Assembly: GCF_044324785.1 (NCBI RefSeq)
Contig: NZ_CP172127.1
Strand: one strand, 5' to 3'
DNA length: 64,000 bases
From: Escherichia coli
GTDB lineage: Bacteria > Pseudomonadota > Gammaproteobacteria > Enterobacterales > Enterobacteriaceae
This document shows positions 19,532 to 25,881 of this stretch, in pieces. The position numbers were made by a program, and so were the translations under genes. Below the pieces are notes generated by a model, which was not told the origin of the DNA, ran no database searches, and saw only the letters and a program-made list of their open reading frames with translations. Numbering within the stretch: the first letter of the stretch is position 1; every line of letters begins with the position of its first letter.

Positions 19532-19866
19532 CAGAAGCGATCCTCTTATGAGATGTAGGGTGACATGGCGATGCTCATTTCGTAGCCATAATCTAAAAAT
19601 ATCTACATTTCTGAAAAATGCGCACAAAAGCGACATATTGTTTTCTTATTGTGATCACAAGCAACAAATTAGTAACATTTAATGTGGGGTATTGAGGCAA
19701 AGTGAGACAGGAAATGAATAACTAAAGCAACAGGTTAGGGGGAGCTACCATCAGAGAACAGATTATCTGGTCGATAAAAAACAGTAAATGGCTTCACTGC
19801 AAAATGACCGTTAGTAAACTAAACATATTATCTGCCCCGTTTTAGCGGGGCAGATATAACATTAAA

Positions 19867-22119
19867 TTACAAATAGAAATAGTTCGGCGGTTCTCCTGTT
19901 TTCCCTAAAAGAAGAGCGCTGCGCCCAGGAATATTGATATTTAGAGCTCCGCCTCTAAGCGTAAATACTTTACCAGGGGGAATACTTTTGCGTGTATTAT
20001 TATTAATAATGGTAACGCTATTACTCCCCATGTTTTTATATATTCCTGGTTGCAATTTGTTAGGCCAGGTACCTTCAACTTCTTCGTTTCCTTTATTTAT
20101 TATAACTAGTCCATCATGAGGAGAGTGATTAATGTTCACAGAATCTCCACGACTAAAGGCCAGAACATTTTTAGTTGCAAATACACCCTCAAATGCGCTC
20201 CATATTCCTTCTTTATCTATATATAATGCGTGGAATTCATTGTAGAGCTGCTGATAGGTAGAGCAACCTTTATTAAGCCACGCCTCACCGCCGACACGAG
20301 TGGACCCATCATCATTTTTAATCTCAGTCGTTGATTTTAATACCTGACCATCCCAGTAAACTAAAGGCCTGCTGAACGGGAGAGCGGCCATATATGCCAT
20401 TGCTAATTGTTCATCTTGCTGATGGTTAAATAAAAAGTCATTGAAAAGATTACCATTGTTAGGAAAATCGTGGTTAATGTTAATCAATATCCGTCTTTCT
20501 GATGGGATGCTTGAGATTGTGGAGCCCGGTTTTGATGCAAGAGTTTGGAGATTGCCACCAAATGAAAAGGCTTTTATCGTCTTCATGAGCAATGAAAAAT
20601 CAATGGCGCTTAAATCATCTCTTTCATAAAGCAGCGATGACATTTGTTGTTCATCTAACGGACAAGTTACCAGGTATTCCATGTAATTCATAACAGCTTT
20701 TTTTTGATATTTTGGATTAAATAAATTTGTATTGTGCAACCGCTCATTATAATTTTTAAGCGGTGGGGTTATCGACCTCTCTATTTGTTCATGTTTTGAG
20801 TGTTTTGCTGCATCATAACGTAAACCTCGTACGCCATATTTTCGCATTTCACGAACGTATTGATTTTGCAACATAATAACCTGGTCACTTTTGGGTGTTG
20901 TTTTAGGCATTCCATTTAAACGCTTTTCTTTTAATGCATGGAGGTTTTCCCATTCATCCTTAGAAATATTATCTTTACTTGCTTCGAAGTCTTTTGCAGT
21001 GAGATGTATATCTTCTGGATGGATTTGGTCACGTTCTTTTGTTAATGGATCTATAATAAAGGGAATCAAGACCTGACCTTGCCAATAGCCAGGGATACCA
21101 CTTTCTATATCTTTACTGATCTTCGCTCGTATATCGGCAGAGGGATAATCCAGATCATTTTTACCACTACCCCCGATTCCCATAAAGTTAAATGTATAAT
21201 CAGGGATGATATCGATACCAAATTTTTTGGCATCTTTAACCAATGCGATAAAATCCTGCAAATCTCCCATTGGATTATGGATAGTACAAAGATCTTCGGG
21301 TTGATAAGCGTGAAACCAGTAACCTTTTTCTTCTTCGGGAGTTTCTGGTCCGTCGGCGCGGAAAGTGGTTACGGGAGGGATTTGTATATACCCATAATGA
21401 CAACGTGCAAACTCAGATATATTTTTCCTGATTTGCTGATAGGTGGCATTAAAAGCATGAAGAATCGCTTCGCCAGGTTTTTTGGGGGTGATGATTTCAC
21501 ATTGTGATTTCTGAACAGCAGTAAGAGATTTACGCTCAAGTGTTTGCCGTAGATGTTCTGGATTGATTAATATTTTAAATGTTTCTTGCTGGCCGGTAGG
21601 TGACGTTACGTTAATATTATATACATCAGCTGCCAGTTCATAGTCAGGAATGTTAATAGCATATGCAACATACTTATCTTTTGGGGACGGTTTGTCAGAT
21701 ATAATGTGAGTGAAATGTTCAGCTGGACCATACTGATGAACACCGCTGTTATCACCTCTTTCAACCATTGTATCTCGTTGATAAACCCATGTTTTTCCTT
21801 CTCCTATCCTGTCTGGCGCTGTAATGCTACGCTGTGCTGCTTTATTCAACTCTCGGTAAGTTGTATCTGGAAAAAGGGAAATTTTATAATCGTTTTTTAA
21901 CAGATCATTAATGACTTTTTCTGCGTGAAAAGTTGATATAATCTCTCTGTGTTTTAAATCCTGAGGATAAACTCCACAAGAATTAATAATATTTGTTATA
22001 CAGTTTAGATATTCTAATGTATTTAATTTGGAATTTAGATCCCCGTCAGTAATGTTCCATGATAACAATGTGGGGTTGCCGATAGGTAAATTTCTTGGTC
22101 CTGGTTTTATAGAAAACAT
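19867..22119 (-). CDS. ygaQ: Uncharacterized 750-aa protein YgaQ with a glycoside-hydrolase (alpha-amylase-like) motif
   Basis: AT-rich 750-aa ORF; motif GVRGLRYDAAKH resembles GH13 region II (GFRxDAAKH); positioned between csiD and the tRNA as ygaQ is in K-12. Confidence 0.75.
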   Translation of the reverse strand: MFSIKPGPRNLPIGNPTLLSWNITDGDLNSKLNTLEYLNCITNIINSCGVYPQDLKHREIISTFHAEKVINDLLKNDYKISLFPDTTYRELNKAAQRSITAPDRIGEGKTWVYQRDTMVERGDNSGVHQYGPAEHFTHIISDKPSPKDKYVAYAINIPDYELAADVYNINVTSPTGQQETFKILINPEHLRQTLERKSLTAVQKSQCEIITPKKPGEAILHAFNATYQQIRKNISEFARCHYGYIQIPPVTTFRADGPETPEEEKGYWFHAYQPEDLCTIHNPMGDLQDFIALVKDAKKFGIDIIPDYTFNFMGIGGSGKNDLDYPSADIRAKISKDIESGIPGYWQGQVLIPFIIDPLTKERDQIHPEDIHLTAKDFEASKDNISKDEWENLHALKEKRLNGMPKTTPKSDQVIMLQNQYVREMRKYGVRGLRYDAAKHSKHEQIERSITPPLKNYNERLHNTNLFNPKYQKKAVMNYMEYLVTCPLDEQQMSSLLYERDDLSAIDFSLLMKTIKAFSFGGNLQTLASKPGSTISSIPSERRILININHDFPNNGNLFNDFLFNHQQDEQLAMAYMAALPFSRPLVYWDGQVLKSTTEIKNDDGSTRVGGEAWLNKGCSTYQQLYNEFHALYIDKEGIWSAFEGVFATKNVLAFSRGDSVNINHSPHDGLVIINKGNEEVEGTWPNKLQPGIYKNMGSNSVTIINNNTRKSIPPGKVFTLRGGALNINIPGRSALLLGKTGEPPNYFYL

Positions 22120-22697
22120 AATAAAGTTCCTCTAATGGTAGAGTAATATGGTGTATACGGAAACATAAAAATGTTTAATTGTTGTGAAAGTAATTGCAAA
22201 CAGATGTCCTACTTTTATCCAATATTTATATGGAAAAGGATAATGCTTAAATCTGTTTTTTTAATTATCGATGTGGTCTGGAGAGGCAACTGTCAAAAAT
22301 CGCTCATACGAAACTAATGATTAGCAGAATAAGATCTATGAAAGAATATATTGCTATATGAAGTTTATTTTTATGGAGTGAAAAGTAACAGATATCATAA
22401 TGATGCGAAAACTCTTCAGCTAATGTAATAAAGTTATATTATTAGATACAAAATCATTACAAAGTATCATTGAATCGATGATAACTATAGATAGTGCTAA
22501 TTATTAACATTTGCTTGTTGACTGCGAGTATCGACTTTGCGAATGGAGGCGGTGTCGGGTTTTATGTCGCAGGTAATGACGACCCAGGATGAATGAGAAC
22601 GCATAAAAATCTGTTATTTACATCATAAGATCATCATGTTTATTGCGTGGTTTATAAGTATTGTTATTGCATACTCAAGGCCCTTTAGCTCAGTGGT

Positions 22698-22774
22698 TAG
22701 AGCAGGCGACTCATAATCGCTTGGTCGCTGGTTCAAGTCCAGCAAGGGCCACCATATCAGCATTCACGTATCAG
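22698..22774 (+). tRNA. ileY: tRNA with CAT anticodon; sequence and context match tRNA-Ile2 (lysidine-modified, ileY-like) rather than tRNA-Met
   Basis: ggccctttagctcagtggttagagcaggcgaCTCATAAtcgcttggtcgctggttcaagtccagcaagggccacca; 7-bp acceptor stem, T-loop GTTCAAGTCC, encoded CCA. Confidence 0.9.
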
Positions 22775-24959: not shown

Positions 24960-25304
24960 ACTTCTAAAAGCAGTTTTCAATGATAAATAAAAGGCTATTT
25001 TTAAAAGAGATAATAACGTAGATTGAAATAATATATATTGTTGACTGATTAAACGGAATTATCCTTCACACTACAACCATTTTGCTGCCACTACCAAAGA
25101 AAAAGGGGCTACGCTTTCACGTAACCCCTTGATTTATTTGGTGAGCTGGCGGTGTCTGAATTGGTGCTGTAATGGGTTGAAATATTTCATCTAATGTCTG
25201 GTTCAACTTTCCTTAGCTGCCTGAAAGTTTTTTTGATATTACCCATCAATAATAGGGTTACGGTGTACCACGCCTGACTGATGAACTGCGTGCTCAGAGT
25301 TACC

Positions 25305-25480
25305 ACGCGCATAACCGTGGCAGCAGACCCGGACAGAACAAACGGCTCAGGACATTATCGGTAGGGGACGTACTGGTAGTATGGAAACTGAACCGACTGG
25401 GGCGCAGTATGCGACATCTTGCCGTGCTGTTGGAGGAGCTGTGAGAACGTGGTATTAACTTTCGTGCTCTGACTCTACCA
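25305..25480 (+). pseudogene. pinH: Decayed serine-recombinase (Pin/Hin/Gin-type DNA invertase) remnant, pinH-like
   Basis: Translates as …RPGQNKRLRTLSVGDVLVVWKLNRLGRSMRHLAVLLEEL*ERGINFRAL…, matching the invertase catalytic core (GDTLVVWKLDRLGRS…ELRERGINFRSL) but with an in-frame TGA and a downstream frameshift; boundaries approximate. Confidence 0.75.
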
Positions 25481-25881
25481 ATATTTGCCCAACAATGGGG
25501 GGACGAAAGCTGTAAAAGTAAAACAATCTGCAATCTCAATGTTATTGTGTGATTTTTATGTGAGCAGAAGATATTCATCAGAAACGATTATGTAAATCAT
25601 TTTATTTTTCCGACGGCTTCAATGTCGAAAGAAAAGAATACGCCCGTATTTCCTGAATAGATTGACTTTTTTATCCAACCACACTTCAGCGCACTGCGTT
25701 TAAAAAATTCCTCTTTCTTATGCGGAATATCATCATTTCATCATGATGTCTTTGATGAGCGGTGAACACAATACACTTGCGCTGTCTCTTCAGGATGAAT
25801 CCCCTGGTCTGGTGCCTGTGGGCTGATGTTGCAGCAAAGCTAAGGTCGCTTAAACGCTACTCAGTATTCACTTTTCAGAGG

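Follow-up and report, generated by a model that had tools for sequence, protein, structure and literature searches.

A probable H-NS-silenced AT-rich block, ygaQ-ileY-ypjCB, as the low-GC half of an old strain-variable segment in Escherichia coli

Introduction

The concept of H-NS-silenced xenogeneic DNA reportedly comes from Navarre et al. in 2006, and spurious promoters inside genes are said to have been described by Singh et al. in 2014. Here we consider a candidate for such DNA, the ygaQ-ileY-ypjCB block at positions 19640-25760 of a 64,000-nucleotide stretch of Escherichia coli DNA (RefSeq assembly GCF_044324785.1, contig NZ_CP172127.1; the whole stretch is called the window below). The block is the low guanine-plus-cytosine (GC) half of an old, strain-variable segment; it has a foreign-type core and is most likely silenced by H-NS, together with StpA and Hha.

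The closest described counterpart is the orthologous region of strain K-12 (b4462 ygaQ, b2652 ileY, b2650 ypjC, b2649 ypjB, b2648 pinH, and b2647 ypjA; NC_000913.3 2,778,146-2,788,649). Using genomic SELEX (systematic evolution of ligands by exponential enrichment), Shimada et al. located H-NS sites in the ileY-ygaQ and ypjC-ileY spacers of K-12 and listed TAGATA-16-TATCAT as the ileY promoter (PMC3946193). A promoter internal to ygaQ was one of six H-NS-repressed intragenic promoters from horizontally acquired genes that Warman et al. tested in K-12 (PMC7229825). In K-12, Garcia-Contreras et al. observed an enrichment of Hha at ileY and at ypjC that largely depended on H-NS, with the number of putative Hha sites down to 19 in an hha/hns double mutant, and linked Hha to the control of rare-codon tRNAs (PMC2408971). 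The neighborhood is also known for mobile DNA, since ter-operon elements integrate at the tRNA gene between ypjC and ygaQ (PMC8193136) and the element CP4-57 occupies ssrA in K-12.

The locus described here has the gene order and orientation of K-12, an identical ileY, and the same flanks, with glaH at one end and ssrA-downstream DNA at the other. It differs from K-12 in that ygaQ (750 amino acids [aa]) and ypjCB (484 aa) are intact, whereas K-12 has a ygaQ pseudogene and a split ypjC/ypjB; in its ypjCB allele, which is 11% apart in nucleotides; and in the absence of CP4-57, which in K-12 lies between ssrA and ypjA. With xenogeneic DNA silenced by H-NS, StpA, and Hha, the block shares a low GC content, promoter-like sites at a density that follows from composition, orphan genes, and a patchy distribution. 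In contrast to that class, it is old and unameliorated, holds a probably useful tRNA gene and an enzyme gene under purifying selection, and is without virulence or mobility cargo. With CP4-57 at ssrA and the ter-operon elements at ileY (PMC8193136), it has the chromosomal neighborhood and a recombinase relic in common, but it has no integrase and no duplication of an attachment (att) site, and its junctions lie off the 3' ends of the RNA genes.

Results

The first-pass annotation of the window, made from its letters alone, had set off positions 19640-25760 as markedly more AT-rich than the surrounding core genes, and the numbers bear this out: the GC content is 0.369 in this interval versus 0.507 in the rest of the window, about 8 standard deviations (SD) below the 457 other windows of 6.1 kb (mean, 0.505; SD, 0.017; minimum, 0.471). 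Both the sliding-window GC profile and codon usage, which the annotation had proposed as checks, deviate strongly and clearly. The GC content takes only some 300 bp to drop (19500-19800, where the csiD/glaH promoter region lies) and stays low to about 25050; it is back up at 45 to 50% over a serine-invertase remnant (about 25050-25500), dips a second time at about 25500-25880, 5' of ypjA, and reaches normal values again inside ypjA. In the stretch 19731-25050, the real extent of the anomaly (Table 1), 73% of the 100-bp windows have less than 40% GC, versus 5% elsewhere, with 89 versus 46 TpA steps and 31 versus 15.5 A/T tracts per kb. The content that the annotation had listed (ygaQ, a tRNA gene, a 484-aa open reading frame [ORF], and the invertase remnant) was all found. 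Its three AT-rich intergenic stretches are likewise real, with GC contents of 0.309 (22120-22678), 0.375 (22755-23504), and 0.403 (24960-25761), but the third is not uniform, as the invertase remnant within it has 45 to 50% GC. What did not stand was the placement of the block next to stpA: this gene lies at 9948-10352, 9.3 kb and nine genes away, and its nearness is incidental. Other short AT-rich spots in the window (GC content, 0.36 to 0.40) lie at 3501-4000 and at 9251-10000, from upstream of stpA into its 5' end.

Table 1. Coordinates of the strain-variable segment, the features within it, and its right-hand neighbor in the window
Feature	Position	Strand	Description
Strain-variable segment	19731..30468	.	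10,738 bp; bounded by the csiD/glaH promoter region and ssrA-downstream DNA
AT-rich half of the segment	19731..25050	.	Real extent of the compositional anomaly; mean GC content, 0.362
Intrinsic-terminator-like hairpin	19829..19856	-	11-pair stem with 7 G-C pairs, directly 3' of the ygaQ stop codon
ygaQ	19867..22119	-	Intact, 750 aa; predicted divergent GH13 alpha-amylase-family protein
Counterpart of K-12 fragment "ygaQ 1.1"	20593..20742	-	In K-12, an H-NS-repressed, AT-tract-dependent intragenic promoter (PMC7229825)
Divergent ygaQ/ileY control region	22120..22678	.	Most AT-rich stretch; GC content, 0.309
ileY promoter	22443-22470		TAGATA-16-TATCAT, as given in PMC3946193; unchanged here
ileY	22679..22754	+	tRNA-Ile(CAU); ARAGORN; Rfam tRNA, 73.8 bits
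Conserved element downstream of ileY	22852..23008	+	About 160 nt, unannotated; conservation and predicted fold
ypjCB	23505..24959	+	Intact, 484 aa; DUF5507 and DUF5508 (Pfam and NCBIfam Ecoli_YpjCB)
Terminator-like hairpin	25103..25130	.	12-pair stem flanked by T-rich runs; separates ypjCB from the invertase remnant
pinH-type serine-invertase remnant	25320..25474	+	About 38 codons, Resolvase positions 64-100, Pfam E value of 1.2e-9, in-frame stop
ypjA/ehaD	25882..30459	+	AIDA-type autotransporter adhesin in the variable segment; GC content, 0.495; GC3, 0.49
ssrA	30620-30982	-	Right-hand neighbor of the variable segment

The two protein-coding genes of the block carry the same signature. GC content at third codon positions (GC3) is 0.30 in both ygaQ and ypjCB, versus 0.39 to 0.70 in all other ORFs of at least 150 aa, and AUA occurs 28 and 21 times per 1,000 codons, respectively, where about 3 is typical (a 7- to 10-fold excess). 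Their Karlin codon bias relative to the pooled remaining genes (0.528 for ygaQ and 0.501 for ypjCB) gives the two largest distances in the window, the 34 other genes having a mean of 0.318 (SD, 0.078) and a maximum of 0.480. Sigma-70 promoter-like sites number 24 in the 6.26-kb block versus 5 in core DNA of equal length, a count that matches the expectation from composition only (22.6 ± 5.1 in shuffled sequences).

Comparison with other genomes showed that the low-GC interval is only part of the unit that varies between strains. Uropathogenic E. coli 536, of phylogroup B2, has 333 bp of unrelated sequence in place of the segment, which sets its junctions at 19730 and 30469 (alignment and BLAST); the interval first delimited is thus real as a compositional feature, but the strain-variable unit is larger and takes in ypjA, whose composition is normal. 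In the presence/absence analysis that had also been proposed, the 10.7-kb segment turned out to be complete in 47 to 53% of 5,426 complete E. coli genomes, reduced by deletions in roughly a quarter, and missing from B2: at least 80% of the segment was present in 2,558 of them and at least 80% of 19000-26500 in 2,860. Rough proportions, taken from evenly spaced rows of the ranked match list for the same genomes, are about 47% with a complete segment, about 10% in which ypjA or ygaQ is truncated, about 18% holding ygaQ alone or a truncated piece of this gene, and about 20 to 25%, including sequence type 131 (ST131), ST1193, and 536, with nothing at the locus but paralogues. Insertion sequences (IS1, IS3, IS5-like, IS110-like, and IS1203) occupy many of the deletion and insertion points. 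Genes of the segment have also been inactivated independently, with a ygaQ pseudogene and a split ypjCB in K-12, an internal stop in ygaQ of O157, a ypjCB frameshift in ECONIH1, and a ypjA frameshift in N3; in the strain studied here, ygaQ, ypjCB, and ypjA are all intact.

Part of the block is shared with Escherichia albertii. That species carries a ygaQ homologue (60% aa identity) at the same locus beside csiD, in DNA of 28 to 41% GC, followed by a CAU tRNA gene with five differences from ileY, some of them compensatory; in its tRNA-ssrA interval, ykgR and L31/L36 paralogues stand in place of ypjCB-pin-ypjA. Nucleotide identity to E. albertii is 91 to 94% in the flanking genes and 68 to 69% in ygaQ. 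By the Nei-Gojobori method, ygaQ differs at a nonsynonymous rate (dN) of 0.25 and a synonymous rate (dS) of 1.7, which is saturated, while flank dS is 0.25 for glaH and about 0.5 for smpB (0.52), recN, and nadK. Within E. coli, the dN/dS ratio of ygaQ is 0.10 to 0.15, indicating purifying selection that is weaker than in core genes (0.00 to 0.09). Because ygaQ and ileY occupy the same place in E. albertii, are equally AT-rich there, and have diverged to saturation, the block is old rather than a recent import; it is also unameliorated and holds at least one gene kept by selection.

Low GC content and GC3, atypical codons, patchy presence among strains, and an almost complete lack of homologues outside Escherichia support the xenogeneic origin that the annotation had proposed. 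Such a block might also be native DNA that became AT-rich in place, without acquisition, by the universal GC-to-AT mutation bias in decaying, unexpressed genes, a history that would suit the frequent pseudogenization in the region, the relaxed constraint on ypjCB (dN/dS, about 0.5), and an age sufficient for sharing with E. albertii. We consider it unlikely, since the ygaQ ORF is intact, evolves under purifying selection (dN/dS, 0.10 to 0.15), and has a GC3 of 0.30 in both species; since searches of 5.8 and 1.84 billion proteins gave no orthologue of ygaQ or ypjCB from any other enterobacterial genus; and since the compositional edges are sharp and coincide with the presence/absence junction.

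A different kind of acquisition, by a mobile genomic island or prophage whose remnant sits at ileY or ssrA in the manner of CP4-57 or the ter islands, is suggested by the location: ssrA is a documented integration site (CP4-57 in K-12), as is ileY for ter-operon elements (PMC8193136), the whole segment lies beside the ssrA 3' end, and a serine-invertase remnant is present. Most of the structural evidence points the other way. No integrase was found, and the sole recombinase trace is the 38-codon fragment, which is separated from ileY by 2.6 kb and from ssrA by 5 kb. A repeat search returned no flanking direct repeat of the 3' end of ileY or ssrA, and a search of the window for the 23-mer at the ssrA 3' end, with 3 mismatches allowed, found ssrA itself only. 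The right junction (30469) is about 150 bp from the end of ssrA (30620) rather than at the 3' end of an RNA gene, and the DNA at this junction is also found after the CP4-57 attR in K-12 and in 536, which is without the segment. Nor does ileY mark an edge, as it is internal to the AT-rich DNA and about 320 bp downstream of it are common to E. albertii; nothing similar to a 22755-23100 query was found in phage or genuine plasmid records. The block is not a live mobile element, and its descent from an island integrated at either RNA gene is very unlikely. One candidate for an ssrA-type att remnant, at 25136-25152, matches 14 of 17 bases in direct orientation to ssrA but has no sensible position and was put down to chance; in K-12, the true CP4-57 attR (psaA) lies elsewhere, directly adjoining the ssrA-downstream DNA.

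The reading that we prefer, an old, foreign-type core held silent by H-NS, draws on the K-12 literature, which can be transferred with some precision. The ileY spacers are 96% identical to the orthologous K-12 DNA in which the H-NS sites were located. For the H-NS-repressed fragment within ygaQ, the published reverse primer (PMC7229825) matches exactly at 20593-20619, and the remaining fragment is recognizable with substitutions. By analogy, we infer that the block would be in the same H-NS-silenced state in this strain as in K-12.

Several observations weigh against this reading. The published evidence for H-NS located here consists of in vitro SELEX and promoter assays, all on the K-12 orthologue; in PMC4288151 and PMC11335895, consulted for chromatin immunoprecipitation data, these genes were not mentioned. 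The high-affinity H-NS motif TCGATAAATT (tCGATAAATT) has no match in 19640-25760 at up to one mismatch, versus 10 matches elsewhere in the window, where 5.9 are expected. A motif of the TCGATAAATT type is not required for H-NS to bind AT-rich DNA. No donor lineage was identified, the sole distant relative of YgaQ being on an unassigned gut metagenome contig. Finally, ygaQ cannot be silent at all times, because it is under purifying selection and its product retains the catalytic residues. Even so, we hold it to be highly probable that the block represents the GC-poor half of an old segment that varies between strains, with a foreign-type core silenced by H-NS, StpA, and Hha.

At its N terminus, YgaQ is extended by about 215 aa, and a signal peptide is not obvious. 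The Pfam domain Alpha-amylase_C (PF02806) scores 28.1 bits, above its cutoff of 21.2, while the catalytic domain (PF00128) reaches 21.4 bits, narrowly under the 22-bit gathering threshold; the best PDB matches are alpha-amylases of the Bacillus subtilis type. In an alignment of 11 sequences, R433, D435, K438, H439, E480, H549, and D550 are invariant and D306 nearly so. The triad Asp435/Glu480/Asp550 and the region II and IV motifs (RYDAAKH and NHD) are invariant in this alignment, the conserved regions I-IV that define GH13 are present, and YgaQ is accordingly predicted to be a very divergent member of this family. Together with ileY, ygaQ looks functional rather than junk. Searches of 5.8 and 1.84 billion proteins restricted ygaQ to E. 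coli and E. albertii, apart from a single metagenome match of 35% identity. This relative, of 824 aa, is encoded on a 17.9-kb contig from the human gut metagenome, next to InvH-like, FidL-like, EAL, OmpR-type regulator, and giant invasin/intimin-like genes; the contig looks like another enterobacterial accessory island.

The second protein of the block has an even narrower distribution. An exhaustive HMMER search of 1.84 billion representatives gave one full-length YpjCB cluster, the rest being fragments at 55 to 95% identity, and all 120 matches listed by a word-index search come from E. coli or Shigella, at identities of at least 89%. By these searches, ypjCB appears to be an orphan gene restricted to Escherichia and Shigella. 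The full-length matches from outside Escherichia were set aside: one was a repeat-summed artifact (an MBG-domain protein), and the other was marginal (E value, 9e-4). Within E. coli, dN/dS is about 0.5, and dN is ten times that of core genes. The AlphaFold model, built on a shallow alignment of 37 rows, has a mean predicted local distance difference test (pLDDT) score of 38.6. Its sole part of moderate confidence (pLDDT, 57 to 71) is residues ~364-412, where a 5-residue hydrophobic periodicity can be seen by eye (DFKGC FFSGQ NFRNY DIKYV NWRTS LF); this resembles pentapeptide repeats and is without Pfam support. The C terminus is strongly acidic. The ypjCB alleles fall into two deeply separated classes that differ by about 11% in nucleotides (dN/dS, about 0.5), and in strain S1-JOR-02-A, ygaQ is 98.7% identical to that of the window while the ypjCB allele is merely 88.5% identical, which amounts to mosaicism inside the block.

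Between these two genes lies ileY. ARAGORN had labeled it Met(CAT), which we corrected: all 76 bases are identical to K-12 ileY (b2652), and the cloverleaf carries a CAU anticodon as expected of tRNA-Ile2. It is thus the second tRNA-Ile(CAU) gene, whose product would decode AUA after lysidine modification. Its placement fits the idea that it supplies the AUA decoding especially needed by its AUA-rich neighbors.

In the ygaQ/ileY spacer, a patch at 22287-22375 is conserved with E. albertii. An imperfect 32-nt inverted repeat (25 of 32 positions) has one arm here (22288-22319) and the other at 23418-23449, upstream of ygaQ and ypjCB, respectively, and in the same relative orientation; its exact 13-mer core, AAAAATCGCTCAT, is found nowhere else in the window (0.14 occurrences expected). 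No variation was seen in arm 1 within E. coli or in E. albertii, and arm 2 differs at one core position among strains. The repeat may represent a regulatory site common to both genes or a promoter that was duplicated.

It might be asked whether AT-richness was itself selected for a local function, such as an extended regulatory or architectural domain around ileY or a curved-DNA or nucleoid-domain boundary, with silencing being secondary. The inverted recurrence of AAAAATCGCTCAT upstream of ygaQ and ypjCB would agree with this, and so would the conserved noncoding islands in fast-diverging DNA (22287-22375, 22852-23008, and the region of the ileY promoter). The whole region is nevertheless missing from about a quarter of E. 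coli strains, successful B2 lineages among them, and the AT-richness runs evenly through coding DNA at third codon positions, as a mutational or ancestral signature does and a site-specific one does not; we regard selection for such a function as extremely unlikely.

The most conspicuous of these islands is an unannotated element downstream of ileY (Table 1); no other noncoding sequence of the region, which has otherwise diverged past alignment, is as well conserved between the two species. In 50-bp windows it is 86 to 98% identical to its E. albertii counterpart (about 9112-9280), while the adjoining DNA is unalignable. It opens with a hairpin of about 32 paired positions (22853-22938), the inner stem of which is perfect in E. 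albertii; a second, G+C-rich hairpin (22947-22968) and a tail of 40 invariant nucleotides complete it. The predicted fold of the E. coli plus strand is -52 kcal/mol (z score, -4.25), versus -39.7 for the minus strand. Across six sequences, pairing holds in 99.6% of the cells, and each of the 11 variable pairs is preserved in five or more of the six; the changes, from G-U to A-U or G-C, are valid on the plus strand only, and no double-sided compensatory change occurs in the stems among these six. The element is single copy and, with the sequence immediately 3' of ileY, occurs in 3,092 of the 5,426 genomes. In Rfam, the window matches only tRNA and tmRNA, with no match for 22852-23008 and weak matches that are terminator look-alikes. 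When 100,044 species-representative genomes were scanned for exact 20-mers of the element, a single match came up, on contig DEQI01000374.1 (2,799 bp) of the metagenome-assembled genome "Planococcaceae bacterium UBA3370"; this contig is 90 to 92% identical to 22709-25608 and is almost certainly Escherichia contamination. Two other candidates were dismissed. A 41-codon ORF (22866-22990) is open in E. albertii, but all codon differences except one are nonsynonymous and it has no Pfam match, so coding is unlikely; in one strain, the element seemed to be cut off at the hairpin apex, which proved to be an ordinary IS3 insertion.

It is possible, rather than probable, that 22852-23008 is a functional RNA derived from the ileY primary transcript, either a 3' trailer of the 3' external transcribed spacer (3'ETS) type or an RNase III-processed stability or regulatory structure. 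The comparison that comes to mind is 3'ETS-leuZ, which we take to be the 3' external transcribed spacer RNA of a tRNA operon: the element is likewise conserved, structured, and located on the tRNA strand in the 3' flank of a tRNA gene. It differs from 3'ETS-leuZ in having no sequence or Rfam similarity and a hairpin of about 32 paired positions, and it is known here from sequence alone. Alternatively, since the 22947-22968 hairpin followed by T6 on the minus strand resembles the intrinsic terminator of a short minus-strand transcript, the element may overlap an antisense small RNA of about 65 nt (23005 to 22941) ending at this terminator. Its conservation may also reflect recent shared ancestry, given that only two diverged lineages are compared and that there are signs of recombination nearby.

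Around the block, the order gabP, gabT, gabD, lhgO, glaH (csiD), ygaQ, ileY, ypjCB, pinH remnant, ypjA, and ssrA is that of K-12. The invertase remnant is annotated as a partial recombinase in N3 by the Prokaryotic Genome Annotation Pipeline (PGAP) and as a pinH pseudogene in K-12. The start of ypjA is most likely ATG 25882, which gives 1,525 aa by comparison with annotated orthologues, rather than GTG 25762, where the mechanically called ORF began; in N3, PGAP additionally calls a 39-aa hypothetical protein at about 25711-25830. The product has the Pfam make-up of an AIDA-type autotransporter, with AIDA repeats (PF16168; 11 stretches), Pertactin (PF03212), and the Autotransporter beta-domain (PF03797), and dN/dS against strains other than N3 is 0.2 to 0.24. 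The 30460-30620 side of ssrA is here without a prophage or island, and K-12 has CP4-57 there; in O157:H7 strain 611, integrase genes lie beyond ypjA, where the window has ssrA.

N3 is the strain nearest to the window: core DNA at 31000-39000 is 100% identical to that of N3 and about 98% identical to that of other strains. Despite this identity, the gab/csiD operon (14500-20500; gabT-gabD-lhgO-glaH) is 2 to 4% different from N3. Its dS to E. albertii is 0.17 to 0.26, about half that of smpB, recN, and nadK (about 0.5). The pattern suggests that the operon is a recombination mosaic, perhaps with exchange between species.

Discussion

The observation of an AT-rich block was correct, and the ygaQ-ileY-ypjCB region was already known in E. 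coli, being annotated in K-12 and used before as an example of horizontally acquired DNA under H-NS silencing, so that the finding as such is ordinary. Its value is partly that of a clean positive control, in which a reader of the sequence only recognized xenogeneic DNA.

How such a block would persist can be sketched as follows. The foreign-type core (ygaQ, ileY, and ypjCB) has never drifted to the base composition of its host. At 64% A+T it exceeds core DNA about fivefold in sigma-70 promoter-like sites, a situation that H-NS is known to counter, and its TpA- and A-tract-rich character is of the kind preferred by H-NS filaments. In its working state, the block most likely forms a silenced H-NS domain, with StpA and Hha, that suppresses both genic and spurious intragenic transcription and modulates the output of ileY. 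Silencing would in turn relax selection and open the way to pseudogenization, IS insertions, deletions, and full loss in phylogroup B2, and relaxed selection of this kind fits the repeated and independent events of these types seen among strains.

For the biology of E. coli, a block of about 36% GC has kept its composition since before the split of E. coli and E. albertii, with ygaQ diverging to saturation (dS, 1.7) under purifying selection in the meantime. A tRNA that would read AUA, amid AUA-rich genes and in DNA that is reported to bind Hha and H-NS in K-12, offers a compact system in which to ask how silencing and rare-codon supply are coupled. With three intact protein genes that are lost in K-12 or other reference strains, the present strain would also be a better background for studying the function of YgaQ and YpjCB.

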